A program made the position numbers and the translations under genes. The notes under the pieces are model-generated. The model had not been told where the DNA came from. It searched no databases and saw only the letters and a program-made list of their open reading frames with translations. Shown piece after piece: positions 12,213 to 47,674 of a stretch of 53,558 nucleotides of DNA; position 1 is the stretch's first letter; every line of letters starts with the position of its first letter. The DNA comes from a virus (taxonomy: Duplodnaviria > Caudoviricetes): positions 1-53,558 of the IMG/VR virus record IMGVR_UViG_3300033562_000211; one strand, given 5' to 3'.

Positions 12213-13253
12213 TTAATATGCCCATTCTTGTTCTGGTTCTTTTTTACCATTTATTAACTTATCTCCCCAACGCCAACCTAATTGAACTCCTTTACCCATT
12301 GCTAAAGAAGAGAAAATATTAGGTATATTTCCATTTCCTAAAGGATTGAATGTATTTAATGGATTCATCAAAGAACCTATCATCCCACCTTTAGAATATG
12401 GATTAGGCATAACATATCCTAACCATCTATTGTCTGATCTCCAATTCTTATACAGCTCTTTTCTAGTCGCATTTTTTAATGCTTTAGCTTCTTTAGCACC
12501 ACTATTTATAGCTAGATTCTTAATTATATCAGATATTACATCTTTTGATTTAACTCCATCAGCAGTACTAGAAAATTTTAACACTTCATCCATAATAGAT
12601 TTTTTATCATAATGCTCCATTAAATCTGGATATTTTGATAAAGAAGTTAACTTATCTTTTATAGTGCTCTTACCAGTGTTAGACATTAATCTAGTTAGCT
12701 TATTTACAATTCTAGAATCAGTAAATTTGTTGGCTATTTCTAATGATTCATCTACTGAAAAATGTGGACTTTTATCAATTATATTAGTCATCATATTTTT
12801 AAATCCATCTACCATTTTAGATTTGTTAACAAACTCTCCGACCTCACCTAAGACTTTCTTACCAATAGTTTGAGTACCTTTAACAGTTTTTAAAGTACCA
12901 GCCATAGGCATTAACATAAGTGCAGACCATCCCTTTGACATAGAAGATGCATTAGAATTAGGATTGACATTAGACACATCTTCTGGATTAGGTAAAACTA
13001 ACTTAGCAACATTATTTATACCGTTTAAATTATTATAGTACTCTTTATAAGATTCGGTATAACGAGAAGGTTCTAAAAAAGAATCATCTTTCCAATCTGA
13101 TGTTCCAATTGATCCTTGTTTATATCTCTTCTCTCTATTTATCTCATTTAATCTATCTTGCATTATCTGATTACTATAATTCAATTGGTCTCTTGTAGAA
13201 GGATTGAATCCAAATTGATTCTCCATGTTACACCCCTTTTCTAAATTTACCAC
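12213..13253 (-). CDS. Hypothetical protein, possibly an internal virion protein; start may be ATG 13226
   Basis: Long ORF in the late module with no recognisable motif. Confidence 0.5.
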   Translation of the reverse strand: MVNLEKGCNMENQFGFNPSTRDQLNYSNQIMQDRLNEINREKRYKQGSIGTSDWKDDSFLEPSRYTESYKEYYNNLNGINNVAKLVLPNPEDVSNVNPNSNASSMSKGWSALMLMPMAGTLKTVKGTQTIGKKVLGEVGEFVNKSKMVDGFKNMMTNIIDKSPHFSVDESLEIANKFTDSRIVNKLTRLMSNTGKSTIKDKLTSLSKYPDLMEHYDKKSIMDEVLKFSSTADGVKSKDVISDIIKNLAINSGAKEAKALKNATRKELYKNWRSDNRWLGYVMPNPYSKGGMIGSLMNPLNTFNPLGNGNIPNIFSSLAMGKGVQLGWRWGDKLINGKKEPEQEWAY

Positions 13254-13302
13254 TTCTTAGCCATTTTGAGCCACTTTCTCAATCTCATGATAATTCCTTC
13301 AT
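13244..13302 (-). repeat. Dispersed gapped motif, copy 1
   Basis: ATGAAGGAATTATCATGA-N17-AAAATGGCT-N8-GTAAATT on the - strand. Confidence 0.8.
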
Positions 13303-13336
13303 GAAACTTTTAAAACCCATGTAGATCACTTCATTT

Positions 13337-13492
13337 TTAGACCCTGATCCGCTCTTTCCGAAATTTCTTTTCCCGTTTGTCAATAAACTGGACATCACAC
13401 TCTTCAATCTTTGAACAATTTGTGCAGTTTCTATTTTTGCACTCTAAAATCGGTTTCCTGACGATTTCTTGTTCTGATGATACTTTCTTCAT
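13337..13492 (-). CDS. 51-aa Cys-rich protein
   Basis: Hand-translated MKKVSSEQ...ECKNRNCTNCSKIEEC; GGAG RBS. Confidence 0.45.
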   Translation of the reverse strand: MKKVSSEQEIVRKPILECKNRNCTNCSKIEECDVQFIDKREKKFRKERIRV

Positions 13493-13509
13493 GAACTTTC
13501 TCCGATGCT

Positions 13510-13701
13510 TTAATTCGCTTTGCTTTCAATGGAAAATAAACAAACTTTTCCATTTTTGCTAATCAATTTCGACATTTCGTAATTCTCAACCTCTTTCCGG
13601 TTACAATTACACACAAAATTAAACTTTTCATGTAGCGTTACTAACTTATTGCATACCTGACATCTATACTTACCATTCAAGTCTTTTGTTATACTGATCA
13701 T
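13510..13701 (-). CDS. Small zinc-ribbon-like protein
   Basis: CQVC...CNC; ATGA-coupled to the upstream ORF. Confidence 0.5.
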   Translation of the reverse strand: MISITKDLNGKYRCQVCNKLVTLHEKFNFVCNCNRKEVENYEMSKLISKNGKVCLFSIESKAN

Positions 13702-13793
13702 ATATCTTTCCTTTTAATCTGTTCTATAATACACCATGCTACAAACACCATAATAAACAATATCAGAATAGATTCAACAAAATCTTTACTCAT
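13698..13793 (-). CDS. 31-aa single-TM peptide
   Basis: MSKDFVESILILFIMVFVAWCIIEQIKRKDI; ATGA overlaps at both ends. Confidence 0.5.
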   Translation of the reverse strand: MSKDFVESILILFIMVFVAWCIIEQIKRKDI

Positions 13794-14305
13794 TTAACTA
13801 ACCAAATAGTTCCACCTAAGAACACTAATATTACAACAGCACCAATCCATGCTCTATCCCACTCTGGTCTTTGTTCTATATTTCCAGCATTAATCCCATT
13901 ATAAGTTGTTTGTGCAGGATACATATAACCATTAACATCAACCATAGAACTAGGAATACCTCTCCATTGCATAACTATATGTTTAATTGTGTCTGGAGCA
14001 CTTAAATACTTTAAATTATAATATGAGCTTCCTTTACTAGACCAATAAGTAGTACATCCAATGTCTATATATCTATCTTTATACTTAAATCCTACCTTAT
14101 ATGTAGTATCTTCTTTAATTATCCTTGCAATATGTTTAATATGATAAACAGTAGTATCAACACTCTTTACCCTAGTAACCACACTATCCTTCCATAATAT
14201 CCTAGTACTAACATCAACTTGTCTTAACTTATAGTTATCATATCCTAAATATAAACATCCAATAACCAACATTGTAAATATAAAGACATATACTTGTTTA
14301 ATCAT
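13790..14305 (-). CDS. Membrane protein of the lysis cassette (spanin-like)
   Basis: N-terminal and C-terminal hydrophobic helices; downstream of the endolysin. Confidence 0.45.
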   Translation of the reverse strand: MIKQVYVFIFTMLVIGCLYLGYDNYKLRQVDVSTRILWKDSVVTRVKSVDTTVYHIKHIARIIKEDTTYKVGFKYKDRYIDIGCTTYWSSKGSSYYNLKYLSAPDTIKHIVMQWRGIPSSMVDVNGYMYPAQTTYNGINAGNIEQRPEWDRAWIGAVVILVFLGGTIWLVK

Positions 14306-14486
14306 TCTTTCCTCGCTTAAATTAAATCCCTCCTCTTGACTTTCACAAGCCCTAATAACATTACAGCATGTATATAATTAGGTGGTTTTTCTGCACTACG
14401 GAGAGCGCTGAGACTCTATGTGACTTCGCTTGTTAAGCGTAGAGCTACCTCAACTATTATACCTTAGTAAATGCAAACAAAACAAC

Positions 14487-14585
14487 CTAATTCTCCTTAA
14501 TATATCCATATGCAAATCCCCAACCGAACAATACACCAAATAAGAAAGCCATTATATACATCATATCAATACCTACTATGTTCAT
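14487..14585 (-). CDS. 32-aa hydrophobic peptide
   Basis: MNIVGIDMMYIMAFLFGVLFGWGFAYGYIKEN; overlaps the endolysin 3' end. Confidence 0.3.
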   Translation of the reverse strand: MNIVGIDMMYIMAFLFGVLFGWGFAYGYIKEN

Positions 14586-15090
14586 AAGTCCAATTCAGAT
14601 ACTGCTTATCATCTATGTAGTAATTCCCAGTCTTGAATAATCTAGCTTCACATGATCTTCTACCTATAATCTCAGGAGGATTCTTCCACATCATAATAGC
14701 ATCAACTATCTCATCTACATCTTCTCCAGCTATAATCCTCTTGACAAATGTGCTAGGTTTAGTTGTAAATGCTGTTCTTCCTATATTAATACAGATACTT
14801 ACCAATGCATCGAACTGATGTTGATTAACCAAATGCCCAACCTTATCTGCTACTGGTTTACTATATCTCTCTAAATCTTGTTGAGTTAACTCTTCTAATT
14901 CAGCATCAGATAACTTATCCATCATAAGATTGATAGTTCTATTGCATAATGTAATATACTCATATCCAGGGAAGATTCTATGCCCTACACCTATAGTAGG
15001 AAATCCTCTTGTATCAAAATACATCTTCTTCTTCTTACCCTCTAATCCATGTAAGAATTGTATTCCCTGTAAGCTAACTTCTTGAATCAT
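14566..15090 (-). CDS. Endolysin, GH24 phage lysozyme
   Basis: Catalytic E-x8-D-x5-T in LEGKKKKMYFDTRGFPTIGVGH; NQHQFDALVSICINIG; RRSCEARLF. Confidence 0.92.
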   Translation of the reverse strand: MIQEVSLQGIQFLHGLEGKKKKMYFDTRGFPTIGVGHRIFPGYEYITLCNRTINLMMDKLSDAELEELTQQDLERYSKPVADKVGHLVNQHQFDALVSICINIGRTAFTTKPSTFVKRIIAGEDVDEIVDAIMMWKNPPEIIGRRSCEARLFKTGNYYIDDKQYLNWTYEHSRY

Positions 15091-18293: not shown

Positions 18294-18415
18294 ATTCTAT
18301 TCCTTTCTTGTTTAACCATTTGTGTTGTCCAGTACGGAGTACTGGAAAACGTGAATCTCATTGAGTGAAGCGAAATGAGAGAGGAAAGGCTAGTCTCTAA
18401 CAAATGAAGACAACC

Positions 18416-19974: not shown

Positions 19975-20091
19975 TTGTAGTCTCCTTTATTCTTTAATCT
20001 CAATGCCCCAAAGTTCCCTCATCGTGCTTCGCCTTGCCTGACGGCAGGCACGCACTAAGGAACAGGTATGGTAAGTTTGTTTATTGTTTAT

Positions 20092-20415: not shown

Positions 20416-20692
20416 TGTTCATGATCTCCCATTTAAAAGATTCATTCTTACATTTAAACTCTATTTCTATAATATCTTTATCCATTATACACATACATTC
20501 ATACTCATACCATATTTCCTTGATTTCATCCACATTTTCATAGGTATTAGGAGTAATTCTCTTCTTTTTCTTACCATAAAATGTAGCTCCAGATGATACG
20601 ATAGACCATTTTTCATCATCAAGCTCACATTGAACAGTAACCTTGAACGTACCATTAGCTAAATCATAAGGAAAGTAGTATCGAATATTCAT
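20390..20692 (-). CDS. Hypothetical protein
   Basis: First ORF after the leftward promoter. Confidence 0.5.
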   Translation of the reverse strand: MNIRYYFPYDLANGTFKVTVQCELDDEKWSIVSSGATFYGKKKKRITPNTYENVDEIKEIWYEYECMCIMDKDIIEIEFKCKNESFKWEIMNNGSNYKRM

Positions 20693-20741
20693 TTGTGAGC
20701 CTTATGGATAGATTTTTAAGAAATAAAAAACTTATAATGGT

Positions 20742-20770
20742 ATGTTACTCAAGATAAGACCCAATGTCAA
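20742..20770 (-). promoter_or_regulatory. Sigma70-like leftward promoter
   Basis: TTGACA-17 nt-TAACAT on the - strand, upstream of the whole left arm. Confidence 0.6.
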
Positions 20771-21147
20771 GAGATTTATTTCCAGATTTTAGCTTAGAAT
20801 AGGGCTACTTCTTACCGAATTACTGTAAATTTTTAGAAAATTTTTATAATTTGATTCATTTTTCTTTTCTGATTTATTCTTTTCTCTTATATAGGATCAA
20901 TATAGAGCTAATGATAAGTAATATTATAAGAATTATAGTTTTTATGGGTTATATAAGGAAATATCTAAAAATAGTAGAAAATTGTACGCTGTGTCAATAT
21001 TACTCAAAGAGACCCATACCAAACGGTATTTGAGTTGATTCATTTATCAGTAGATAAAAGAATGCTTATTTGTGGAGAGTTAGACTGTGGGGTAATGTTA
21101 ATGGTGACATTGTCCTAATTATTTAATCAATATGTCTGGAGGACATT

Positions 21148-21303
21148 ATGGATAAGTATGAAGAGATTATTTACAGACCAAAGAGAACAGTTAAAGATGT
21201 ATTGGAAACAACTGTTTTGTTTATTATTGCATCTGTTGGATTTGGATGTTCATTTGGGTTAATAGCTTATGCTATTAAGTTGTATGTTATGATACATCAG
21301 TGA
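21148..21303 (+). CDS. 51-aa membrane peptide
   Basis: GGAGG RBS; MDKYEEIIYRPKR...VLFIIASVGFGCSFGLIAYAIKLYVMIHQ. Confidence 0.5.
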   Translation: MDKYEEIIYRPKRTVKDVLETTVLFIIASVGFGCSFGLIAYAIKLYVMIHQ

Positions 21304-21503
21304 TGTATTCTTATAGGTATATAGGGCTTTAATTAGCCTTATATACTTATATTTATTTCTTTTTTATTTATGTTTATATATACTTAACCAGGACTCCCGT
21401 ATTTAACGATATACCGTGGGGTAGTAGTAGTGAGTCTATGAGTCTGGTAGATAATGGTGTCTATGCTATGCTATCCTAAATTAATCTCTTGAAAGGAGAT
21501 TAT

Positions 21504-21785
21504 ATGAATTTTGATATGATTATCAAGAGCTTCGGGAAGCTGCTGCTTCAAACCGAAGCTCTAAGGGTATTAGCTTCTGGTAATACAGAAGCGTATCCCC
21601 TAATATTGTTATCGCTAATGGCGATGATAGCAGAGGATATGGGTAAGACCATACCCGAAGTCTGCACAATGCTGGTAGATTTTGCTGCTTCCTGGGAGGA
21701 AGTATCAGCAAAGTTCACCAATATTGCTATGTCTGGTAAAATGATGGAGGCGATGATCAAGATGATCACTGCTACCCTCAAATAG
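21504..21785 (+). CDS. Hypothetical helical protein, GC-richer than the flanks
   Basis: AAGGAG RBS before ATG 21504; followed by a terminator. Confidence 0.6.
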   Translation: MNFDMIIKSFGKLLLQTEALRVLASGNTEAYPLILLSLMAMIAEDMGKTIPEVCTMLVDFAASWEEVSAKFTNIAMSGKMMEAMIKMITATLK

Positions 21786-21796
21786 CCATCATGTTT

Positions 21797-21823
21797 AAAG
21801 GGAGTATAATAGCTCCCTTTTTT
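21797..21823 (+). terminator. Intrinsic terminator
   Basis: AAAGGGAG-tataatag-CTCCCTTTTTTT. Confidence 0.75.
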
Positions 21824-22029
21824 CCTTATTTTTTCCCCTATTAGGTAGAGAGAACGAATTTAGATCCCATAATTAAACCTTGATTCTCATTAAATACTAC
21901 AATTAAACACCATAAACGGTATTTTATGAGTCCTGGTTAAATATCACAGACTGTGGGGTTTCTTTGGGGTAAAGAAAGGAAGGAAAGAAACTCTAAAGAG
22001 TATATAAAAAGGTTATTATTAAAATATAA

Positions 22030-23200: not shown

Positions 23201-23213
23201 CTTAATCTTCCAA

Positions 23214-34881: not shown

Positions 34882-34906
34882 TCATTAAATTAACCAGGAG
34901 TGAAAA

Positions 34907-36343: not shown

Positions 36344-36463
36344 ATGTATCGAATGTATCAATTTCAGAGGACCAGATGGATAATTTTGAAGAACGATTAA
36401 ACAATATCTATTTAGCCATTATAATTTTATTAGTAATGAGTCTTATGTCAAGATAGGAGTAAT

Positions 36464-36892: not shown

Positions 36893-36901
36893 GGAGAATA
36901 T

Positions 36902-37165: not shown

Positions 37166-38234
37166 TATTCAATTACCAAGACCTCTATATGATGCAATGA
37201 GTAATGATGAATACAGTCCAGGAAACTCTGATTATACACCATCTTCTTTATGTCAAGGAACAAAAGAATATTGGGGTAAAAGAAGAAACAAAGGATTAAA
37301 AAGATATGCATCTAAATTATGGGCTTCATTTACTGGAACAGCAATGCATAAAGGATTAGAATACATGTTAAGATCAATCTATAAGTGTGACTTATATGGA
37401 AAGATCTTTGAAAGTATGGATCCTTGCAGAGAAGCAATATCTAAGAATATTACAAATTGTAAAGAATGTCCTTATATAAAGGTAATCAAGTTATCAGTAT
37501 ATAAGACAGAGGTTCACCTAGAAGTAAAATTCAATCAAACAGCTAAAACTCTAAGATTGCCTGAAGAAAAGATCATTGGTGGAACAATAGACTTAATAGA
37601 GGTTGACAATGAAATAATCATCTGGGATTATAAAACAATGTCAACCACACAGTACATTGATGATAACAAAATTGCAGAATGGACAATCAAAGGTAATATA
37701 TATGTATGGCTACTAATGATGACTAAGACAATAGGTAAAATAAACCATCTTAGATACATACCTATATTTAAAGATTGGACAACAACTAAAGCAGAAAGAT
37801 CAAGAGATGTGACAGACATACCGGCTCCTACAATTCCATTAGAAATATGGAGTAGAGCAAAGGTTGAAGAATTTATCTATACTCAAGTAATGAGACATGA
37901 AGCATCTAAAGATACTCCATTAGATGAAATACCTTACTGTACAATGGAAGAGAGATGGGAAAAACCAACTCAATATAAAGCTCTTAAGTTTACTGATGGT
38001 GTACCAGGAAAGAAAGCATCAGCAGTTAAAGCAACACAAGATGAGATCATAGACTTCATAAACAGTAAGAAACCAAAGAAGAATGAATGCTATATGTGTC
38101 AAGAATTTAAAGGAAGACCAACAAGATGTATGGGTTGGTGTGATTTAGGAAACAATGGTTTATGTGACTATAAACAATTATACCTAGATTCACTTAAGGC
38201 AACTCCATTTGATGAAGACGATTCAGAAGAATAG
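37140..38234 (+). CDS. PD-(D/E)XK (Cas4/RecB-like) nuclease
   Basis: TPSSL, GTAMH, GTIDLI...IWDYKT, C-terminal RC..WC...C. Confidence 0.82.
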   Translation: MAKPLLINDIQLPRPLYDAMSNDEYSPGNSDYTPSSLCQGTKEYWGKRRNKGLKRYASKLWASFTGTAMHKGLEYMLRSIYKCDLYGKIFESMDPCREAISKNITNCKECPYIKVIKLSVYKTEVHLEVKFNQTAKTLRLPEEKIIGGTIDLIEVDNEIIIWDYKTMSTTQYIDDNKIAEWTIKGNIYVWLLMMTKTIGKINHLRYIPIFKDWTTTKAERSRDVTDIPAPTIPLEIWSRAKVEEFIYTQVMRHEASKDTPLDEIPYCTMEERWEKPTQYKALKFTDGVPGKKASAVKATQDEIIDFINSKKPKKNECYMCQEFKGRPTRCMGWCDLGNNGLCDYKQLYLDSLKATPFDEDDSEE

Positions 38235-38319
38235 ATAAATAGCCTTAGTTTTTGTTACGCTTAATGGTTTTACTACCTGTACCATTATGAAAGACTAAGG
38301 CTTAACTTTAGGAGAACAA

Positions 38320-38544
38320 ATGGAAGAAAACAATAAGTATTTCCTAATATCTGAAACAAACTATCGTAAAGATATGCAACAGCTACAGAACAGATTATTG
38401 GGAATAATGTTAAAGAATTCAATGGAGAATTCATCTAAAAGAGATGAAACATTAGTCAAATCATTAAGACAACTAATGAATGACATAGAAGAGAATGTTA
38501 TGAAAAGTAAATTTGCTAAACCGGAGGAAGTATGCCAAACATAA
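38320..38544 (+). CDS. Hypothetical protein
   Basis: AGGAG RBS. Confidence 0.5.
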   Translation: MEENNKYFLISETNYRKDMQQLQNRLLGIMLKNSMENSSKRDETLVKSLRQLMNDIEENVMKSKFAKPEEVCQT

Positions 38545-38771
38545 ATCTTAATCAAGGAGCAGAATATTTCTGTGATCAACAAATGATAGATCTAGAATAT
38601 GATTCTGATTCATGCTATATTAATCCACATGTAGATAAATGCAGACAATGTTATGCATTCTGCAAGCAAGATTATACAGCTAAGATAAGAGATGAAAAAC
38701 AGAAACAATTCATTAGCCCAGATAGTATGAAATGGGAAAAAATAACTATATGGGAACAAGAAAGGGAATAA
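38532..38771 (+). CDS. Hypothetical Cys-rich protein
   Basis: GGAGG RBS. Confidence 0.5.
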   Translation: MPNINLNQGAEYFCDQQMIDLEYDSDSCYINPHVDKCRQCYAFCKQDYTAKIRDEKQKQFISPDSMKWEKITIWEQERE

Positions 38772-38772
38772 T

Positions 38773-39138
38773 ATGAATTACTTATTCTTATACCTACTAA
38801 CAATATTAGATTCAATTTTATTATTTATATCATTTGTATTTGTATTTACTTTAACATTTGAAATATTAAAGTTTTTCCTATACGTGATGGGAGAACAAGA
38901 TAATAAAATGTATTTAGTACTAAAATCAAAAACCATACTAACAAGAATATTGTTAGCGATATCCATATTGATAATAACGTTTGTTCCAAGTAAAAACGAC
39001 ACAATTACAATATTGGTAGAAGGGAAAACATTAAACTATGTTCAACAAGATTCTACATTACAAAAGATACCAGAACAGTCAACTAAATTAGTTTATGAGT
39101 TTATTAATAAACAAATAAAGGAATTAGAAAGGAAATAA
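38773..39138 (+). CDS. Two-TM membrane protein
   Basis: Two hydrophobic segments; FVPSK motif. Confidence 0.55.
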   Translation: MNYLFLYLLTILDSILLFISFVFVFTLTFEILKFFLYVMGEQDNKMYLVLKSKTILTRILLAISILIITFVPSKNDTITILVEGKTLNYVQQDSTLQKIPEQSTKLVYEFINKQIKELERK

Positions 39139-39139
39139 T

Positions 39140-39376
39140 ATGGAAGATCCATTAAGATCAACAGGAAGAACGATTAGAATAATTGATGAATTAATACAGA
39201 AATTATTTACTACAGGCAAATGTGTTTGTAGAGATCATTGGGACACTCCTGATACGTCAAGATTTCTAGCAGAAATGGTTGTAAGAAGAATGACCTATGA
39301 GCATTCACAGAAAGTGATTGTGATCTACAAAAGGAAAAGAGCTTACATTGAATTAAACAAAGGAAGTATAAAATGA
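39140..39376 (+). CDS. Hypothetical protein
   Basis: Coupled ORF; RSTGRT. Confidence 0.5.
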   Translation: MEDPLRSTGRTIRIIDELIQKLFTTGKCVCRDHWDTPDTSRFLAEMVVRRMTYEHSQKVIVIYKRKRAYIELNKGSIK

Positions 39377-39533
39377 AACAATATCTACTAACAGAAGATG
39401 ACCTTGATAAGATTATATTTAATCTAATACAAATGAGGCTAACAACAAGTGAAACAAAACAAGAATATCTTTCACAAGAAATAAATGATATAATCTTGTG
39501 TAAGGAAGTAATAAAGAATTAAAAAGATTATAG

Positions 39534-39914
39534 ATGTTTGAAATCTTACTGATCATATTCACCATTCATGCTGAGGCTGGCAACCAAAGCATGAGTGGTA
39601 AGATAGGAGTATACTGTGTCATACGTAATAGATACGACACTGGTAAGTATGCTAACTATATGGAGATTATCCTAGAACCTAAACAGTTTAGTTGCTATAA
39701 TAATCCTCATATAATATATGCTTATTGGAAAACATTCAATTGGCAAAGCATACTTGATGGATTAAAAGTAATAGCAACAAATAAAGACATAACTCATGGT
39801 GCTACATATTATGCTCAAAAGCAAATCAAACGTAAATACCATGGCAAACTAACAGTTAAGATTGGTAATCACAAATTCTATAAGGAGAAGAGATGGGAAA
39901 GTATGAAGAAATGA
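39534..39914 (+). CDS. Cell wall hydrolase, SleB/Hydrolase_2 family
   Basis: TIHAEAGNQ, VIRNR, QFSCYN, DITHGATYY, IGNHKFY. Confidence 0.88.
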   Translation: MFEILLIIFTIHAEAGNQSMSGKIGVYCVIRNRYDTGKYANYMEIILEPKQFSCYNNPHIIYAYWKTFNWQSILDGLKVIATNKDITHGATYYAQKQIKRKYHGKLTVKIGNHKFYKEKRWESMKK

Positions 39915-40417
39915 TGCATAATATATATGCAAAAATAAGAGCGAATATAGCACCAGGAGACAGTTGCAAATCAAAACAAGGAACATGCATCTATTTAGAT
40001 GATCTATTTCATAGAGAAAGAACAAGATCATGTACTATATTTATGGGAAAGATAGAACTCTATGAAATGAAAAAGTTACCTAGATGTAAAGAGTTCTGTG
40101 ATTATATAGGTGATAAAGAATATGAACATCAAAAGGTAAGTATGACAATACAAGAATACTGGGCTAAACTTGTAGCAGCAGGATTGACTCCAGAATCTAA
40201 ATATGCATGGGCTGATAGTTCTCAATACAAAGATGGAATACGCATTAAAGTATGGATTGGGAAAGATGAATACATAATTTTACCTACAACTTTAATAGAC
40301 AGAATAGACAAACCAATTCAACTCCGCAAAGACGGTATCGACTTAGTTTATCTTGAATGGCGAAAACTAACCAAGCAGGATAAATGGAAAGAGGAGACTT
40401 ATGATAACAATAATTAA
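39893..40417 (+). CDS. Hypothetical protein
   Basis: AAGGAG RBS; Cys-containing N-terminus. Confidence 0.55.
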   Translation: MGKYEEMMHNIYAKIRANIAPGDSCKSKQGTCIYLDDLFHRERTRSCTIFMGKIELYEMKKLPRCKEFCDYIGDKEYEHQKVSMTIQEYWAKLVAAGLTPESKYAWADSSQYKDGIRIKVWIGKDEYIILPTTLIDRIDKPIQLRKDGIDLVYLEWRKLTKQDKWKEETYDNNN

Positions 40418-40649
40418 GAATAAAGAAGGTAAAGGATTAACCTTCCAAACACAACAGTATGAGACAGGATTATATGTCATTATTAATGATAGACCAGACT
40501 CTCAATACTGTGTAAATAAAACAGAAGAGAAATATCATAAAGGTTTAATTAAGACTGCTGTCACTATAGGAGATACAGTAACCTATACTCCATATCCAGA
40601 AGTGCTAGTAAGAGCATTAAAGAAGAAAGCCAAGAAGGAGGACACATGA
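40401..40649 (+). CDS. Hypothetical protein
   Basis: GAGGAG RBS. Confidence 0.55.
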   Translation: MITIIKNKEGKGLTFQTQQYETGLYVIINDRPDSQYCVNKTEEKYHKGLIKTAVTIGDTVTYTPYPEVLVRALKKKAKKEDT

Positions 40650-41404
40650 AATACATCAAACTAATACAAGAGCAACCTCTATGGAATGCTGGCTACTGTC
40701 AACACTACGATTTCTCGTTAGCTAACTCATGTGAAGAATCTAGGATCGAAGCCATAATTGAGATCGCTAAAGTATGCAGAGGTGATAAGCCTATTGCTAA
40801 TCCAGAGAAACTATACCAACAACTGTTGACAGAGCATGCTGGTAAACCAGGAGAGATATTCCAATTCATACCTTGCATAAGAACAGAATATTCACCACAA
40901 GTAGTAAGATTCGGTTATACAAACGAACATAATGAAATACTCACAAACCTAAGAGCATGTTTAGAAGATGGTATAGATTATGATTTTGACAAACAGATCA
41001 AAGGTTTCCATGTCTTCAAGCTAAAGATACCTCTCATGATAGTACCACAAATACTGAGGCATGGACAGCTAAGCTTTATGCAACAGAGTGAAAGACATTG
41101 TAAGTTAAGAGAGTATTACTATTGTGAAGACTTCAAACAGTTGCATATGCCAGACTATAAATGGAACTGGTTTTGCAATGAAACAGCACAAGTAAGATGG
41201 GATGAGATTCAACACCATTTTGACATTAGGCAAGAACTCACCAACAAAGGCTCTCATGGTCTAGCCTATACTACTCTATGGATAGCGGGTTGGGAAAAAG
41301 ATCCTTCTCAATGGAAGAACTTCTTCGATGTAAGAACAGTAAATCCAACACAAATAGAGCTACAACAAGTAGCTAAAGTAATGAAGGAGATGATGTATGA
41401 ATGA
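40646..41404 (+). CDS. thyX: ThyX-like flavin-dependent thymidylate synthase
   Basis: QILRHGQLSFMQQSERH matches the spacing of the RHR-x7-S-x-R motif; W.NFFDVR...TQIELQ.VA. Confidence 0.7.
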   Translation: MKYIKLIQEQPLWNAGYCQHYDFSLANSCEESRIEAIIEIAKVCRGDKPIANPEKLYQQLLTEHAGKPGEIFQFIPCIRTEYSPQVVRFGYTNEHNEILTNLRACLEDGIDYDFDKQIKGFHVFKLKIPLMIVPQILRHGQLSFMQQSERHCKLREYYYCEDFKQLHMPDYKWNWFCNETAQVRWDEIQHHFDIRQELTNKGSHGLAYTTLWIAGWEKDPSQWKNFFDVRTVNPTQIELQQVAKVMKEMMYE

Positions 41405-41606
41405 CTGGGTAAGAGATTTAACATCTGTAACAAAAGTATTGATAAAAGACAATAAGCGTTTATGGAATACAGGGTACTTTGCTAATTATCCGTATCCAGA
41501 AATATCAGTATGGCATGAACACTGGACTGTAGCAGATTTGATTAACAATCACTATTGTAATCATAGGAGTTATAATAGCCTAGAAGAAGCAATAGAAGGA
41601 GAGTAA
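41397..41606 (+). CDS. Hypothetical protein
   Basis: Coupled ORF. Confidence 0.5.
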   Translation: MNDWVRDLTSVTKVLIKDNKRLWNTGYFANYPYPEISVWHEHWTVADLINNHYCNHRSYNSLEEAIEGE

Positions 41607-41608
41607 CT

Positions 41609-41677
41609 ATGACAACACAAGAAATAATAGATGTAACACACGAAGATGGTTCACCTTGTGGTATGTTGGAGGAATGA
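41609..41677 (+). pseudogene. Internally deleted remnant of the 42017/42997 gene family
   Basis: MTTQEIIDV-THEDGSPCGMLEE; 20-bp identity with 42368-42387. Confidence 0.6.
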
Positions 41678-41679
41678 TA

Positions 41680-41946
41680 ATGACACTAGAAGAAGCAGAT
41701 GAGATAGTAAAACACAACTTCGGTAATAACTGGCTTAACACAGATTATGCAGAAGGTAAAGCGTTTGAAGCTATATGTACTTGTGCAACAGATTATGAAA
41801 GAGATATGACAAGAGGTAATATCTATCAAATAAAAATGATTGGTAGAATATTGCCATGTAATCCATTATGTAGTTTAAAAGGAAACACAGATAGGAGAGC
41901 AACTTGTCATGCAGATAGATTTGTAAAGATAAGAGAGATAACATGA
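41680..41946 (+). CDS. Hypothetical protein
   Basis: GGAGG RBS before ATG 41680. Confidence 0.5.
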   Translation: MTLEEADEIVKHNFGNNWLNTDYAEGKAFEAICTCATDYERDMTRGNIYQIKMIGRILPCNPLCSLKGNTDRRATCHADRFVKIREIT

Positions 41947-42016
41947 GTGGTTATTGCAATAATTGTTGTGTCAAACTAATAACTAGTATGAAAACATTAA
42001 ATATGGAAGACAAATC

Positions 42017-42406
42017 ATGGATAAAAAACTTACATACGAAATAATCAAGAAAACAAAATACAGGCAAACTGTAATGCAAGCATACCTAGATGGCGAAACT
42101 ATACAAGGTTATGATCTGCAATTCAATGAATGGCGTGATCTTACAATAGAACCAGGATGGAATTGGCAATCAACAGATTATCGTATTAAACCAAAACCTA
42201 AGTATAGACCATACAACATACATGAAATAGATATGTTAAAAGGCAAATGGTTAGTAAGGAAATATGATAGAATAAATGCTATGGTCGTAACAATAGAAAA
42301 AGAAACCATACATTTCTGTCAAGAAGGATCTTATTCATTACAAGGAATATTGACATCGTGGACATATGAAGATGGTTCACCTTGTGGAATACTAATTGAG
42401 GAGTGA
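42017..42406 (+). CDS. Conserved phage protein, paralog of 42997-43386
   Basis: MQAYLDGETIQ...P.WNW...YRIKP...YRPY...DGSPCG. Confidence 0.65.
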   Translation: MDKKLTYEIIKKTKYRQTVMQAYLDGETIQGYDLQFNEWRDLTIEPGWNWQSTDYRIKPKPKYRPYNIHEIDMLKGKWLVRKYDRINAMVVTIEKETIHFCQEGSYSLQGILTSWTYEDGSPCGILIEE

Positions 42407-42728
42407 CATGACAGACTACAGACAACCTCCAACTCAGGAAGACCTGGAGATAATATATGATCTTCCTGATGAGGAAAGCAAATGGTGTCCTTGGTGTAAG
42501 GCATACTACTTCAAGGATGAACAAGAGGAGCATAACCATGAAGTTTAATGTGAAAACCTGAAGGTAGCCACCCTCTTAAAGGCGAATGGCTATCATGCGT
42601 AAACTATATCAAGGAGAACTAAATGAGTGACTTAATGCAAGATACTCTAATAATGACACTACTAGGATTCGCCATAGGAGATATGGCGTATAAATTAGCA
42701 AGTATATTTCTTAAAAGAAAGGATAAGC

Positions 42729-43007
42729 ATGACTAAGTTTGAACTACTAGTCTTCTCATCAGAGAACTGCAAACCATGTCAACTCTACATACCAACGGTT
42801 AAACAGATATGTGAGAAGATGCAGATCAACTGCAAGATCATCAAACGAGAAACAGACAAAGACCTCTTCGAGTGTTATCAAGTGTTAAGTGTACCAACAA
42901 CATTACTGTTAGCAAATAATAAAGCAGTATGGTCAACACCAGGAGCAACAAGTTATACAAGGCTAATAGACAAGTTAATTGAGTTAAAGGAAAAATATGG
43001 AAACTAA
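42729..43007 (+). CDS. Thioredoxin-like protein
   Basis: CKPC active site; cis-Pro motif SVPT. Confidence 0.85.
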   Translation: MTKFELLVFSSENCKPCQLYIPTVKQICEKMQINCKIIKRETDKDLFECYQVLSVPTTLLLANNKAVWSTPGATSYTRLIDKLIELKEKYGN

Positions 43008-43386
43008 AGAAATAATACCATTGCTAATAGCATATGATGAAGGAAAGATAATAGAGTTCAAGGGAGCAAATGGATGGGAGACATCTTATGCACATCCTTC
43101 AACATGGGCTTGGGTAATAGAACGTAGAATCAAACAATCACCAATGTATAGGAAATTTGAAGAAAGTGAAACCCATCTATTAATAGGTAAATCAATATGG
43201 AGAGAACTTAATTCAGAAGGATCCAGACAATTAATATTCATAACTCATATTAATCAATTTAAAACACATCAAGTAATCTTTGCAGCATATGCTTGGTCAT
43301 TAGAAGATCTATTTACAGAATGGAAGTTCTATGATCAAACAACTAATACGTTTACTCTTAATCCAGTAGGCATATTGGTAGAATAA
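42997..43386 (+). CDS. Conserved phage protein, paralog of 42017-42406
   Basis: AYDEGKIIE...PSTWAW...RIK...YRKF...PVGILVE. Confidence 0.6.
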   Translation: METKEIIPLLIAYDEGKIIEFKGANGWETSYAHPSTWAWVIERRIKQSPMYRKFEESETHLLIGKSIWRELNSEGSRQLIFITHINQFKTHQVIFAAYAWSLEDLFTEWKFYDQTTNTFTLNPVGILVE

Positions 43387-44144
43387 TGGATATAGTTTTA
43401 GAAGTAACTCGTAAGTGCAATCTCCAATGCACACATTGTTTGAGAGGTTGTGCTCAGAATAAGACCATAGATGACTATGTGCTATATAGGTTAGCACAAG
43501 AGAAGATTCAATCCCTACAAATAACAGGAGGAGAACCAACCCTTGTGCCTAATCTTATGCAAAGATTCAGACAAGCAGGATTATATCCAGATGATGTATG
43601 GGTATGCACTAATGGAGCAATATACAAAGAGAAGTGGGTTAGAGACTTCTTTGAGTATAGAAGCCAATTAGATTATAAAGATATAGAAGGATTATCAGTA
43701 TCAGTAGATGCATTTCATCCAAGTATATCTAAAGAAAACTATAAAAGATATAGTAAATTAGCAGCAGATATGGGAGAAGAAGTATTAGAGCATTCTAAAT
43801 ATCTTGATTATCACAATGTGATACCATTGGGTAAAGGAGAGCAAATAGGTGGAGGATGGTGTAGAACATACGAATGTGAATGGAAAGGTAAACCAAAAAC
43901 AGAGGAAGGATATGACAGAAAGATTTATATAACAGTAGATGGAGATGTTATATATGGTAGTAATTGGTCTTACAAAAGAATGCAATATCTTTCTCTGGGA
44001 AACATTAAAGAGTATTCAATCTCATACATACTAGAACAAGCAGAATCATGGTATCGTAGTATTTACTCTCGTATTGTAAAGAAAACAGAATCTGAACTTA
44101 AATGGAAGAGAGGTAAGTGTGACAAAAACAGAAATAGCAACTAA
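43386..44144 (+). CDS. Radical SAM protein
   Basis: EVTRKCNLQCTHC, TGGEP, TNG, SVD. Confidence 0.92.
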   Translation: MDIVLEVTRKCNLQCTHCLRGCAQNKTIDDYVLYRLAQEKIQSLQITGGEPTLVPNLMQRFRQAGLYPDDVWVCTNGAIYKEKWVRDFFEYRSQLDYKDIEGLSVSVDAFHPSISKENYKRYSKLAADMGEEVLEHSKYLDYHNVIPLGKGEQIGGGWCRTYECEWKGKPKTEEGYDRKIYITVDGDVIYGSNWSYKRMQYLSLGNIKEYSISYILEQAESWYRSIYSRIVKKTESELKWKRGKCDKNRNSN

Positions 44145-44296
44145 GATAAGACTTCTTAAACTTAATCTATTAGATTCAGAGAGAAGAATGAAACTTGGTA
44201 AGTTATCCAAAGAACATTATAAATCAATGGAAATTGATGTGAACAACAGAATTAAAGAACTAAGAAGAGAGCAAGGTAAATAACAAAGGAGTATTC

Positions 44297-44668
44297 ATGT
44301 GGAAAGCACTGAAGTGGCTAATTGGATTATTTGATCCACCAATAGAACAAAAGAAAATAGAGAAATCTATTGACAAAATAGAGAAAGATGGTTACATTAC
44401 TAATATAACACTACAAGATGTTATACAACCTGAAGTAACCATACCTGTTGAACAAACAGATTGCGAACAGGTCTCGAAAGAAATAAGTGTCAGAGAATTT
44501 CTAAATGTAAAACAAAGAGGTTTGACGAATGCAGAATGTAAATCAGTTCTAGGAGTAGCTTGGGTCTCAATAAGACAGGGAGCTACTCCAAAAGAACTAC
44601 TAGAATACAATGCATTAGTTAAACAAGACAAAATCAACAGATTAAACATAAACAGGAGAAGTATATGA
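44297..44668 (+). CDS. Hypothetical protein
   Basis: AAGGAG RBS. Confidence 0.55.
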   Translation: MWKALKWLIGLFDPPIEQKKIEKSIDKIEKDGYITNITLQDVIQPEVTIPVEQTDCEQVSKEISVREFLNVKQRGLTNAECKSVLGVAWVSIRQGATPKELLEYNALVKQDKINRLNINRRSI

Positions 44669-45267
44669 AACCAGAAAGATTCAAAGAAGTTTATGAAAGT
44701 ATCACAGCAACAAAACCAAAAGCAGACCTATTTGACTACGCTGTAAAGAATCTATTTACAACAACGAAAGCAATAGACTTATCCTTAGCTTGTTATACAG
44801 TAATGTCGTTTTGTGAATCTATGGCTAATGGGTATTCTCTTAACCTTAGAGAGCTATCTAAGAAAACACTTACAGAAAAAGCAAAAGAATACGCTGTAAA
44901 TGATGATAGATTGTGGAACTTTAAAGACAACTACGCTTTCACAAGTGCTTCTCCAATAAAGAATCTATTAGGATATATCAGAAAACAAGCAACAAGCTGT
45001 ATGGATGTATTAACCGATAGATTACAGCCTACAAAGGCATTAGTTCAAGAGAAGTTTGGAGATGTATATAATTACTGCATTCTTCTATTAGCAATCATTA
45101 AGGAGATGGATGATGACCTTTGCAAAGGAATTAGCCCTGAAGGCTCTTCAGATGAAAAAGATGAGTCAACCGATAACAACGATTGTAAAGACTGTAAAGA
45201 TGAAGGAGAGTGCAATTCTGAAAGAGCTAGACTCCTTGCAAAGCTTATTATGGCAAGACTATCCTAA
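44665..45267 (+). CDS. DUF1599/Nmad1-like protein (all-alpha nucleotide pyrophosphatase fold)
   Basis: KAKEYA..DDRLWNF...K...EKFGDVYNYCILL. Confidence 0.6.
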   Translation: MKPERFKEVYESITATKPKADLFDYAVKNLFTTTKAIDLSLACYTVMSFCESMANGYSLNLRELSKKTLTEKAKEYAVNDDRLWNFKDNYAFTSASPIKNLLGYIRKQATSCMDVLTDRLQPTKALVQEKFGDVYNYCILLLAIIKEMDDDLCKGISPEGSSDEKDESTDNNDCKDCKDEGECNSERARLLAKLIMARLS

Positions 45268-45415
45268 TATCTATGAATACACAATATTCTACAATGATAA
45301 GGAAATAGGAATATTATGGGCACAGGAAGATGACTTAAAAATAACAGAACACATAACACAACAAATAATGAGCAACATTAAGTTGAGGAGAAGCGATGAA
45401 CATCCCGATAGATAG
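45110..45415 (+). CDS. Possible ORF overlapping the 3' end of the previous gene
   Basis: AAGGAG upstream of the start; 158-nt overlap. Confidence 0.35.
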   Translation: MMTFAKELALKALQMKKMSQPITTIVKTVKMKESAILKELDSLQSLLWQDYPNIYEYTIFYNDKEIGILWAQEDDLKITEHITQQIMSNIKLRRSDEHPDR

Positions 45416-46088
45416 ACCCAGATCATCAATAAGACTATTCTGTGAAAAGTGTGGATATAAGAAATCCATAGACGACTTTCAGAAACTCAATGGCAAGCGT
45501 TTAGATATATGTACTGAATGCTTTAGTGAACAACAAAATAAACAAATGGAGACTAAAATGGCTAAGAAAAAAGCAGACAAACAAGTAGAAGCTACTGAAA
45601 CACCTAAGGTTAAAATTGTAAGAAACTGTGTATCAGGTGCTATGAGTGCTAACATTGAAGCAATCATGGAAAAAGTAAAAGCTGAATATGACATTACTCA
45701 GTATGTTCTCGCATCCTCTATTGCTAAAAGAGATGTAGTTCAACTATTACTTGGTAAAACAGACAAAGGCTGGGTAAAGATTCTGAATACAATGTACTTT
45801 GGTGGTGAATACACTGTTAAATCAGGTATCAAAAGAGAAGGTATTGATACTCTATCTTATGAGAAAGTAGCTCTTCCTTCACTTAAAGCAGAGATTGATG
45901 CTATTTATGAAGCAATTCCTAATAAGAAAGTACATAACATTGAAGATGAGAAACTTCAAGAATGTTTCGTATCAGGACTGTCAATTAACCAGGTATGCAA
46001 ATTCTTCCCTAGATACAAAAGAGAAAAGGTTGAATTGTTCTATGCACAGCGTACAGTAGAACCAGAGACAGAAGTAGCTGAAGATTAA
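45396..46088 (+). CDS. Hypothetical protein with an N-terminal CxxC...CxxC
   Basis: GAGGAG RBS; a second RBS and ATG lie before MAKKK. Confidence 0.6.
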   Translation: MNIPIDRPRSSIRLFCEKCGYKKSIDDFQKLNGKRLDICTECFSEQQNKQMETKMAKKKADKQVEATETPKVKIVRNCVSGAMSANIEAIMEKVKAEYDITQYVLASSIAKRDVVQLLLGKTDKGWVKILNTMYFGGEYTVKSGIKREGIDTLSYEKVALPSLKAEIDAIYEAIPNKKVHNIEDEKLQECFVSGLSINQVCKFFPRYKREKVELFYAQRTVEPETEVAED

Positions 46089-46107
46089 ACAATAACTAAT
46101 ACAGAAC

Positions 46108-46138
46108 AAAAAGAGTGGTATAAAAGCCACTCTTTTTT
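46108..46138 (+). terminator. Intrinsic terminator
   Basis: AAAAAGAGTGG-N8-CCACTCTTTTT. Confidence 0.75.
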
Positions 46139-46186
46139 ATTTATATTAAACTCTTATAAAATAAGAAGGTTATTATTCAGAACTTC

Positions 46187-46351
46187 ATGATATTTATATT
46201 TACTTTATTAGCAGTATGGATGGGATCACAATGGGATGGAAAAGGAATGGCATTCTGGGGATGTTTAGTAATAATAATAGGCTTTATATTCCCATTTATA
46301 GGTTTAGCATTAGTAATAGGAATGTTATTTTCCAGACATGGATTTACATAA
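46187..46351 (+). CDS. 54-aa very hydrophobic membrane protein
   Basis: MIFIFTLLAVWMGSQWDGKGMAFWGCLVIIIGFIFPFIGLALVIGMLFSRHGFT. Confidence 0.5.
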   Translation: MIFIFTLLAVWMGSQWDGKGMAFWGCLVIIIGFIFPFIGLALVIGMLFSRHGFT

Positions 46352-46386
46352 AAAAGGGAGCTTAATTGCTCCCATTTATTTTTTTT
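46350..46386. terminator. Bidirectional terminator where the two arms converge
   Basis: A-run, GGGAGC-ttaatt-GCTCCC, T-rich tail. Confidence 0.75.
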
Positions 46387-46792
46387 AACTTATTCTAAGT
46401 ATCTTATATATATTTTTATTAGAATAAATAAATTTTCTTTTTTTAGTAGAATAATACAAACTAACGATCCCTTTATCCATATTAATTACTACACTACATT
46501 GATATAAATCTAACAATCTATGTCCTAACCCCAAAGCATTCTGTTCATTAAAATCATCCCAAGTAAAACTAATAGCATTACCAGTAGCATGATTTAAATC
46601 TAATCCTTTTCTACAATCTTCAGTTAATTTGCTTCTACTAACAAATCCTTCTACAATAGTAATAGGTCTATTAACATTAGTAGATATAATCATACCAATA
46701 GTAAGTAAATTATCTATATAATCATTCTTTAATGCAAAGTTCATTGGATTAAGACTCTGCATATCAACACCTTCACTCAACATAAAATTCAT
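46385..46792 (-). CDS. Peptidase M15-like protein, probably degenerate
   Basis: PITIVEGF...NHATGNAISF resembles SGYR...H..G.A.DI, but the metal-ligand Asp is absent. Confidence 0.45.
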   Translation of the reverse strand: MNFMLSEGVDMQSLNPMNFALKNDYIDNLLTIGMIISTNVNRPITIVEGFVSRSKLTEDCRKGLDLNHATGNAISFTWDDFNEQNALGLGHRLLDLYQCSVVINMDKGIVSLYYSTKKRKFIYSNKNIYKILRIS

Positions 46793-46802
46793 TCTTTACT
46801 CC

Positions 46803-47261
46803 TTAGTTAAACATGGATTCTGTTTTTATTTTTCTAGGCATTAAATTATTGAGATAACTATTATTTTTTACATACCTATCAGACTGAATATCATCTAACA
46901 ACGATTGTAATTGTAAATTTTGTTCTCCGGTTCCTTTATAGCCAGTAATCATTTGTTTACCTAATTCAACTCTTTCACTATTTAACATATTCATTCCAGA
47001 TAGTGTGTTCATTCTATCGGTAGTTGCTTGATCCCAACCATTCTTAGCATAATATTCTTCAAGATACCTTCCAGACATTCTAGGAGTATCGCCTCTTTCA
47101 TCTAAAGCATACTTTACGATATAGTTATTCTGATCTTTAGTTCCATGATAAGCGTTACCAAATAGTCTTCTTCCTAAATCAACTCTCTCTTTAGTAGAAA
47201 ATTGAACTCCAGTTCGAGCTGAAATATCTTTAGTTTCGTCGTCATTCCATTTTCCATACAT
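46803..47261 (-). CDS. Protein with two DUF3597-like (putative cell-wall-binding) repeats
   Basis: ERVDLGRRLFGNAYHGTKDQN and ERVELGKQMITGYKGTGEQN. Confidence 0.5.
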   Translation of the reverse strand: MYGKWNDDETKDISARTGVQFSTKERVDLGRRLFGNAYHGTKDQNNYIVKYALDERGDTPRMSGRYLEEYYAKNGWDQATTDRMNTLSGMNMLNSERVELGKQMITGYKGTGEQNLQLQSLLDDIQSDRYVKNNSYLNNLMPRKIKTESMFN

Positions 47262-47462
47262 TTTAAACCTCTTTTCAACCGTTTATTTAACTTCATAATA
47301 CTTTCTCCATAAATCAAATCGAATACGCCCTAAAGCCCTGTTTGATGCCTCCATTCCTTTTCAAACTAAATTGTCAATCTGGAAAAATGGAGTCAAACCA
47401 AATTGAGATCCAGAGACTTGAAACTTAGTGCCAAACAAGGCATTTAAAGCGATTTGATCAGT

Positions 47463-47660
47463 TTATGATGATTCCCAGGTTGGTCTTTTATTTTGCTGAA
47501 ATTCATAGTCATTTGAATTGAAAACGACTACTTCAACACCGCCGGCAAACAATCCTAAACGATTTTTCAAAAGTTCAGGTCTGCTTAAAATAAAATCCAG
47601 AATCTCATCATTAGGAATTGCCACTTTACAAGCCATTTTAGAGGGGTTCTTTAACTTCAT
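47463..47660 (-). CDS. Possible 65-aa protein beginning inside the dispersed motif
   Basis: GGAGG RBS; lies in a TpA-poor island. Confidence 0.35.
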   Translation of the reverse strand: MKLKNPSKMACKVAIPNDEILDFILSRPELLKNRLGLFAGGVEVVVFNSNDYEFQQNKRPTWESS

Positions 47661-47674
47661 GATAATTCCTCCAT
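47616..47674 (-). repeat. Dispersed gapped motif, copy 3
   Basis: ATGGAGGAATTATCATGA-N17-AAAATGGCT-N9-GCAATT on the - strand. Confidence 0.8.

Follow-up and report, generated by a model that had tools for sequence, protein, structure and literature searches.

Why does an uncultured phage carry the same gapped sequence of about 70 bases at places many kilobases apart in its genome, each time just ahead of genes? The question is raised by a linear IMG/VR virus record of 53,558 bp (IMGVR_UViG_3300033562_000211; Duplodnaviria, Caudoviricetes), which is about 59% complete according to CheckV, has a GC content of about 32% and is called the window over its whole length. The phage possesses three well-kept and three decayed copies of this signal, referred to as the cassette in the following, and the signal most likely helps to switch on the genes behind it.

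The core of the cassette consists of two blocks, TTATCATGA-N17-AAAATGGCT, for which the window holds three exact matches, with their first ATGs at 13288 (minus strand), 34560 (plus strand) and 47660 (minus strand). If up to three mismatches are allowed, four matches are found against 0.12 expected and none of 100 dinucleotide shuffles reaches four; the fourth of these matches (33817, three mismatches) is an unrelated site. Taken singly, TTATCATGA as well as AAAATGGCT occurs four times in the window, three times inside the copies. Inspection of the sequence places the three strong copies at the coordinates and on the strands reported in an initial annotation of the window, and the doubt voiced there, whether the motif would exceed a shuffled background, is removed by the shuffles, none of which matches the observed count. 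The repeated motif is real and stands up to statistical scrutiny, and there is more to it than the initial description had shown, with six copies being distinguished:

13241-13308, minus strand: copy 1 (strong), 52.3 bits; Shine-Dalgarno (SD)-like AAGG before the ATG at 13288; block 2 at 13259-13267
34541-34606, plus strand: copy 2 (strong), 57.1 bits; ATG at 34560 followed by AAC and TAA (2-codon frame); within a 399-nt gene-free gap
47613-47677, minus strand: copy 3 (strong), 55.5 bits; GGAGG before the ATG at 47660; block 2 at 47631-47639; opens a 65-codon frame
30346-30429, plus strand: copy 4 (candidate); TTGAGA-16-TATCAT at 30347-30374; without SD; GCAAATTTAGA from 30411
47313-47272, minus strand: copy 5 (partial), E = 0.052; GGAG before the ATG at 47296; block 2 absent
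47475-47435, minus strand: copy 6 (decayed), E = 0.014; ATA in place of ATG at 47466; block 2 minus one base

Copy 4 had been proposed in the initial annotation as a weaker fourth member (30369-30416, plus strand), and this proposal stands in part: the site keeps TATCATG and GCAAAT at the identical offset, but a profile built from the three strong copies misses it, as it is absent among the 34 matches at E ≤ 100. The reduced pattern TATCATG-N35/36-GYAAWT has exactly four sites in the window against 0.08 expected. Copy 4 is plausible yet weak, the chance probability of one such extra site being about 0.08. Copies 6 and 5, both absent from the initial annotation, follow copy 3 in tandem on the same strand, with the starts of copies 3, 6 and 5 spaced by 194 and 170 nt, and have the look of block loss or of relaxed copies. 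Copy 5 was also picked up as a repeat family (D10) with 70% identity over 64 nt.

Where do the copies lie with respect to genes? Minus-strand genes occupy the two outer parts of the window (20692 to 1 and 53558 to 46385) and plus-strand genes the part between them, about 20.8 to 46.35 kb. The strong copies, 21 and 13 kb apart and in different gene blocks, begin 48-65 nt past the stop codon of the preceding frame in gene-poor gaps. All three are co-oriented with the local genes, as noticed before, which is weak evidence given the few sites. Three neighbouring genes are of importance here:

12213-13226, minus strand: 337-aa gene, beginning 62 nt past the first ATG of copy 1; an orphan
30430-31293, plus strand: gene for a Sak4-like annealing protein
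34907-36343, plus strand: SF2 helicase gene

The distance from the first ATG to the ATG of a real gene amounts to 62 nt in copy 1 (337-aa gene), 58 nt in copy 4 (Sak4-like gene) and 35 nt in copy 5 (152-aa gene). In copies 1 and 4 a third box (AAATTTAGA) is directly followed by the SD of the main gene; in copy 4 this SD comes after GCAAATTTAGA and precedes the ATG at 30430, which is 58 nt past the ATG of the mini-frame. The frames opened by the first ATGs of the strong copies comprise 13, 2 and 65 codons, as previously stated. The 13-codon frame of copy 1 ends at 13247, 20 nt ahead of the ATG of the 337-aa gene (13226), and the frame of copy 5 has 40 codons with a non-coding score and overlaps the ATG (47261) of the 152-aa gene. 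In copies 3, 2 and 6 a CTG is found at +60, +59 and +53, close to the position of the main ATG in copies 1 and 4 (+62 and +58), and the CTG of copy 3 is in frame. The usual gene start of this phage is TAAGGAG, 6-8 nt and ATG, and the host therefore uses strong SD sites.

How far does the unit reach beyond its core, and is it maintained as a protein? In copies 2 and 3 the colinear stretch measures about 145 nt, with the core being followed by an exact 14-mer and by an exact 13-mer, ATTTCAGCAAAAT (34693 and 47502). The 14-mer, CTGAACTTTTGAAA, had been noted before and occurs exactly twice, at 34619-34632 (plus strand) and at 47565-47578 (minus strand). The features that surround these two copies are:

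34619-34705, plus strand: distal part of the copy-2 unit, with the exact 14-mer (34619-34632) and the exact 13-mer (34693-34705), colinear with copy 3
34795-34820, plus strand: stem of a terminator-like hairpin with T run downstream of copy 2, T-rich tail to about 34830
34853-34881, plus strand: TTGACA-17-TATCTT, a promoter-like site of the helicase gene's own, downstream of copy 2
47463-47660, minus strand: 65-aa open frame with a coding-like score of 0.349, including the 14-mer (47565-47578) and the 13-mer (47490-47502)

Behind copy 2 about 230 nt of A-rich non-coding sequence lead up to the hairpin at 34795-34820, after which the TTGACA-17-TATCTT site follows. When tested against 1,500 random pairs of window segments, the downstream flanks of copies 2 and 3 are the sole flank pair to stand out (p = 0.005), and no other flank comparison outside the core is significant (all p ≥ 0.087, upstream ones all p ≥ 0.23). 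Because its flanks have no significant similarity to those of the others, copy 1 represents a clean insert of about 65 nt and not a gene fragment. A coding score, for which codon usage was trained on the long genes of the phage, amounts to 0.349 for the 65-codon frame of copy 3, with other small genes scoring about 0.1-0.5 and off-frames being negative. None of the three frames of the copy-2 region is coding by this score (0.00, -0.13 and -0.32), and the copy-5 frame scores -0.01. Moreover, the 14-mer and the 13-mer fall in different reading frames in copy 2 as compared to copy 3, and copies 2 and 6, which are identical in 12 of the 17 spacer bases, share the same stop at codon 3. The similarity is therefore not maintained through protein. 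A paralogous family of small genes was not found at the protein level, as only copy 3 is open and the similarity ignores the reading frame. A version of the element that lacks a usable frame has been copied or kept in its own right.

Conservation within the core is not evenly distributed. In the alignment of the three strong copies 37 of 70 columns are invariant, including two runs of nine, and two invariant runs of at least nine are seen in only 0.05% of 100,000 permutations of the columns (P = 5e-4). This clustering is not what uniform decay of a duplicated gene would leave behind. The invariant run of block 1, TTATCATGA, comprises the spacer between SD and ATG, the ATG and the next A, and the SD bases themselves vary among the strong copies (AAGGAA, GGAGTA, GGAGGA). 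Pairwise identities are 0.69 for copies 1 and 2, 0.66 for copies 2 and 3 and 0.60 for copies 1 and 3, and hence the non-coding copy 2 is not the most diverged. The relationships of sub-blocks are mosaic: the spacer agrees in 12 of 17 positions between copies 2 and 6 and in 11 of 17 between copies 3 and 5, and behind block 2 copies 1 and 2 agree in 13 of 17.

What kind of signal would fit such a pattern? Upstream of the core the spacing is promoter-like, with TTTAAA-16-TATCAT in copy 1 and TTGATT-16-TATCAT in copy 3 (9 of 12 matches each) and TTGAGA-16-TATCAT in copy 4 (10 of 12); the best promoter-like match of copy 2 is TTGAAA-15-TATCAT. A hexamer starting with TT 16 nt before TATCAT is present in all four copies (TTTAAA, TTTGAA, TTGATT, TTGAGA), in agreement with the initial annotation. 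As background, a -35 match of at least 4/6 at a distance of 16-18 nt is available at 14% of all window positions, so that three of four copies with such a match correspond to a binomial P of about 0.01, a value in which the relatedness of the copies overstates their independence. With a sigma-70 site defined by a -35 element matching TTGACA in at least 4/6 positions, a spacer of 16-18 nt and a -10 element with A at position 2 and T at position 6, copies 1, 3 and 4 fit and copy 2 does not, and such matches are at shuffle level in the regions scanned. The promoter proposed in the initial annotation thus gains from the invariant TATCAT, from the -35-like hexamer in three of four copies and from the location of copies 1 and 4 ahead of genes, none of which is decisive.

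Tentatively, and at somewhat less than an even chance, we favour the view that the motif is the core of an expression-signal cassette of 70-110 nt, a promoter plus leader with the -10 element overlapping the start of a mini open reading frame (ORF). A host-type promoter would be formed by the invariant TATCAT as its -10 element and, 15-16 nt upstream, by the hexamer of the TTGA type as its -35 element. Transcription would start inside the variable 17-nt spacer, and the downstream boxes AAAATGGCT and GGYAAWT would come to lie within the first 15-40 nt of the transcript, where they could represent either a common 5' leader or a site for some factor, be it an operator or a pause site. In copies 1 and 4 the leader would lead straight into the SD and ATG of a real gene, and in copies 2 and 3 it would extend into the further shared stretch of about 110 nt. 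In this view the cassette was placed at the heads of several phage genes by intragenomic duplication and has been kept block by block in three places, and the SD and ATG lying over the -10 element would be an inheritance from a small gene, the 5' end of which once was the cassette and which is still intact in copy 3. The repeat as such, the non-random conservation of its blocks, its location with respect to genes, its promoter-like geometry and the conservation at other than the protein level are shown by the analysis; transcription from TATCAT and leader action of the downstream boxes are what we infer. This promoter-plus-leader arrangement is ranked first because it accounts for the fact that TATCAT and not the SD is invariant, for the upstream TTGA hexamer and for copy 4, in which the -35, the -10 and box 3 are present and the SD is absent, and also because of the distance of 55-62 nt to real gene starts and the indifference of the blocks to the reading frame.

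Several observations weigh against it. Promoter-like matches of 9/12 are not in excess over shuffled sequence (12 against 7.8, 7 against 9.3 and 16 against 11.6), and the 15-nt spacer of copy 2 is poor for a promoter of the sigma-70 type. A well-spaced SD and ATG inside a promoter in four of six copies would be an odd coincidence and fits a translation start better. In copy 3 a transcription start within the spacer would remove the start codon of its own coding-like frame. A plain promoter, moreover, leaves the invariance of AAAATGGCT at a fixed distance of 17 nt unexplained. Sigma factor domains (PF04542, PF08281) are not encoded in the window, which takes away support for a phage-specific class of promoters, although the record is only about 59% complete; for a single-subunit RNA polymerase (PF00940) neither the search nor its own control had a match, so that this result is uninformative. 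A promoter on the antisense strand (TTGAGC-17-GATAAT in copy 1, TTTAGA-18-GATAAT in copy 3) was considered and rejected as weaker: copy 2 lacks the final T of the -10 element, and neither a terminator nor a gene follows on that strand.

Alternatively, the cassette could exert its function on the mRNA, as a shared initiation region, an operator or a leader ORF, which we rank second and regard as a minor possibility. Block 1 would then be the SD spacer with the start codon, block 2 (+21 to +29) a second contact for a sequence-specific regulator or the ribosome, and translation of the next gene would be coupled to, or gated by, the short frames of copies 1 and 5 acting as leader ORFs. The statement of the initial annotation that translation initiation does not explain the motif is only half right from this angle, since block 1 fits the usual layout of SD, spacer and ATG, with GGAG or AAGG 7-9 nt before the ATG in copies 1, 2, 3 and 5 as in the gene starts usual for this phage, and since copy 3 opens a frame of coding-like score. 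The stop of the copy-1 frame 20 nt before the next ATG would position a terminating ribosome on the SD of the 337-aa gene; an RNA-level element would explain the strict co-orientation with genes; and the motif is A/U-rich, unstructured and overlaps the AUG, features that a review gives for T4 RegA operators (PMC3014915). On the other hand, the SD bases are less conserved than the spacer, copy 4 has no SD, copies 2 and 6 stop at codon 3 and copy 6 even lacks the ATG. The putative leader frames are inconsistent as well, that of copy 1 having 13 codons and stopping 20 nt before its gene and that of copy 5 having 40 codons and overlapping its gene, and a RegA homologue (PF01818) was not found in the window at E ≤ 1, in a record of about 59% completeness. 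Fusion of the copy-1 frame to the 337-aa gene by frameshifting was discarded, as there is no slippery site. Less probable still, and ranked third, is the idea that the copies are inert remnants of the 65-aa small gene, duplicated in tandem and elsewhere and now decaying, with the identical blocks left by chance or by patchy gene conversion. That the copies might derive from one duplicated small gene had been foreseen as a caveat, and the colinearity of copies 2 and 3 over about 145 nt together with the existence of decayed copies speaks for it, as do the tandem arrangement of copies 6 and 5 at spacings of 194 and 170 nt, the coding-like character of copy 3 as opposed to the copy-2 region, the mosaic sub-blocks, which suggest recombination, and the readiness of this phage to duplicate genes (four tandem paralogues at 10658-12196). 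The remnant explanation is right about the origin, yet it is contradicted by the clustered invariant sites, which go far beyond uniform decay (P = 5e-4). Furthermore, the frames differ, the non-coding copy 2 is not the most diverged, copy 1 is a clean 65-nt insert with flanks unlike the others (p ≥ 0.087), and copies 2 and 3 keep the exact 14- and 13-mers amid indels and frame changes, for which a probability of about 0.01 is estimated at 60% uniform identity.

The remaining explanations appear more doubtful. In a composite control point, which we think improbable, the bipartite TTATCATGA-N17-AAAATGGCT would be read twice by one phage factor and be portable between unrelated gene heads; the site would take in the -10 element, the start codon and, at about +12 to +17 of the transcript, a YAAAAT box that resembles a -10 element. 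It could serve close to the promoter for pausing or for the loading of a processive antiterminator-like regulator, or else in promoter-translation coupling. A duplex DNA site for a replication, recombination or packaging protein, for instance part of an origin, the target of an invertase or recombinase or a pac-like site, is more improbable again. Two conserved blocks with a variable spacer of fixed length would suit a protein with two contacts, and a 6-nt palindrome, TCATGA, is part of block 1. The 399-nt gap around copy 2, immediately ahead of the helicase gene, is A-rich and has short direct repeats, and in an independent assembly the end of one contig coincides exactly with copy 6 (47475/47477). 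However, the copies are spread over three different gene blocks, each in a gene-start position, no integrase or recombinase was found among 58 proteins scanned against PHROGs or 45 against Pfam, and in one run (X1) contigs span copy 2 (34000-44954) and copy 3 (47477-48000) without a break, no joint being listed at these sites. The origin, recombination and packaging roles considered in the initial annotation are left without support by these findings. Moreover, iteron-type origins and pac sites are clustered in one place, whereas the copies here are dispersed, and no clustering of this kind was seen, the copy-2 gap holding only short repeats of 11-20 nt. DnaA-box, IHF-site and CodY-box consensus sequences, compared by eye, matched poorly. 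Very unlikely, finally, is an explanation by RNA structure, with three paralogous copies of a folded non-coding RNA or of a fold acting in cis, such as an antitermination RNA. It would be in keeping with the co-orientation of the copies with transcription, with conservation that ignores the reading frame and with a possible RNA of about 230-270 nt from copy 2 ending at the hairpin at 34795-34820, but Rfam 15 has nothing near the copies (two matches at E ≤ 1 elsewhere in the window are far below gathering scores), the consensus fold reaches only -3.2 kcal/mol with none of 10 pairs compensated, and folding of the three cores yields z-scores of -2.3, -1.0 and +0.1, the 296-nt region of copy 2 having a value of -0.5.

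Which known systems come close? By analogy the cassette would belong with the dispersed, strand-specific expression signals of phages. Phage genomes contain host-type sigma-70 promoters as well as two-block promoters, such as the MotA-dependent middle promoters of T4. The cassette resembles these in its pair of conserved blocks, between which the spacer varies in sequence and not in length, and in a -35-like TTGA 15-16 nt before the -10-like TATCAT, 55-62 nt ahead of gene starts; it differs in that the -10 region and a box about 19 nt downstream, and not the -35 region, are best conserved and that ATG and SD are built in. The stoperators of L5 are repressor-binding sites of 13-14 bp that occur in tens of copies. 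Like the cassette they are dispersed asymmetric sites, oriented with transcription and located in short intergenic gaps, but no repressor was recognised in the window, the cassette has only three strong copies and it overlaps start codons.

The closest analogues described so far are the start-associated sequences (SAS) and extended SAS of Cluster K mycobacteriophages. SAS are a 13-bp unit with 11-19 copies per genome, confined to the non-structural half and conserved across several related phages; their function is unsettled, the authors weighing a role in translation against a site for a DNA-binding protein (Pope et al., 2011; PMC3203893). SAS and cassette have in common that they are short, asymmetric and phage-private and lie over the ribosome-binding position a few bases from the ATG, that nearly all copies have one orientation, and that bases unable to pair with 16S rRNA are conserved as well as the SD core (PMC3203893). 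Near a start codon and in one orientation is also where the asymmetric block 1 is found, ending in ATGA in all three strong copies. The start codon of a real downstream gene, as in SAS, was not found there, the frames comprising 13, 2 and 65 codons, of which only the last is coding-like. The cassette deviates from SAS by having three strong and three weak copies in both gene blocks, by conservation that extends 30-45 nt into the frame, by the fixed 17-nt gap and promoter-like geometry, and by several copies without a gene behind the ATG. T4 RegA operators are A/U-rich and unstructured, are located at or directly before the AUG of several mRNAs and show little sequence conservation across about 30 mRNAs (PMC3014915). 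The cassette is like them in being A/U-rich and co-oriented, in its lack of a conserved fold and in the overlap with the AUG, and unlike them in its second fixed box at +21 and in that a RegA homologue was not found in the window.

Does the cassette occur in other genomes? No relatives were found in viral contigs with the 337-aa protein, the helicase or the large terminase (TerL) as single queries. Among 5.8 billion proteins, and again among 1.84 billion representatives in an exhaustive HMMER search, the 337-aa protein has no match but itself; the ESM Atlas has sub-threshold matches only, and its model is poor (predicted local distance difference test, pLDDT, 0.44). The sole match of the 65-aa frame is a 98% identical variant. 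Pfam and PDB sequences yielded no match to the 65-aa protein at E ≤ 10, and its single-sequence AlphaFold model is poor (pLDDT 63.7), with no Foldseek match at E ≤ 0.001; a guess that this protein is an AbrB-like DNA binder found no support in Pfam, PDB or Foldseek. The best relative of TerL is 44% identical, and the motif is missing from 80 loci (735 kb) around TerL relatives of ≤ 34% identity (best E 0.9). The exact two-block pattern has one locus in viral contigs, which lies inside a gene of the opposite strand without flank similarity and was dismissed as a chance match. Metagenome contigs contain 81 such loci, none of them with both flank features, and these are chance matches as well, the best profile score being 19.9 bits as compared to 52-57 bits for the window copies. 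The pattern of block 1 alone is present at no fewer than 115 loci in viral contigs, and among the matches listed none is similar beyond the pattern itself. The motif is private to one lineage, without a close relative in the collections searched.

The contigs of four sequencing runs were compared with positions 34000-48000 of the window. The segment 34000-38000, which contains copy 2, is covered in full in one microbial-mat run (X1), from which the window possibly stems, and in small part in another, and in a run with a low share of the window (X2) no piece lies over the motif sites among the pieces listed. In run X1 a separate contig of 722 nt (46754-47475) ends exactly at copy 6 and has a word depth of 8.5, compared with 12.5 and 13.3 for its neighbours. 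The segment 46754-47477 is possibly a polymorphic cassette bounded by the motif, contig depth being a weak measure. At position 47612 the X1 contig has C and the window T, which changes codon 17 of the 65-aa frame from Asn to Asp, in agreement with the 98% identical variant.

Regulation in uncultured phages without protein homologues offers few handles, and dispersed, strand-specific repeats at gene starts are one of them. As a promoter or leader, the cassette would mark no fewer than three or four units of transcription or translation in an orphan mat phage and would offer a short, testable sequence for reporters and for finding the binding factor. It would also document a 5' control region that has been copied around a phage genome and outlives its source gene. 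In practice as well as in concept the reach is limited, the element being confined to a single lineage and its function being putative.

As to the remainder of the window, recognisable genes are few. Besides those mentioned, they encode an exonuclease, ThyX, a radical-SAM protein and a JAB/ThiF pair, and the following:

1311-3365: portal protein
3362-4927: large terminase (TerL)
14566-15090: endolysin

A search for tRNA genes over the whole window yielded none. Directly downstream of the 337-aa gene, four genes for proteins of 134, 115, 122 and 132 aa are arranged in tandem (10658-12196, minus strand); three of the four proteins start with MKS/MRS-K/R-P-I/V-S-L and the fourth with MKSQNISL, which identifies a family of tandem paralogues. 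Next to these lies a frame of 1505 aa (6128-10645, minus strand) with internal periodic repeats of 30 nt (25 copies) and 57 nt (8 copies) at 60-73% identity, for which Pfam and PHROG searches gave no match. On the other side, upstream of copy 1, two small Cys-rich frames of 51 and 63 aa with CxxC-type motifs are found (13337-13701, minus strand); their codon scores are unusually low (-0.12 and 0.02), so that it is uncertain whether they are real genes. The gaps at 14306-14565, 18294-18415, 19975-20091 and 26000-26271 are locally GC-rich and self-complementary, unlike the remaining genome, and have no match in Rfam; the first of them, at 14.3-14.6 kb, also contains a perfect TATAAT. The divergent gene blocks are separated by 2.5 kb (20692-23214), in which the sole frame of more than 77 aa is located at 21489-21785 and which is possibly a regulatory or origin region. 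Where the plus- and minus-strand blocks converge, symmetric hairpins that are terminator-like on both strands are located at 46108-46137 and 46356-46373. Finally, two overlapping neighbour genes at 28668-29854 (plus strand) encode a prokaryotic JAB domain (24.5 bits, with the Pfam cut-off at 25) and a ThiF/E1-like domain, and constitute a pair of the ubiquitin-like conjugation type in a phage.

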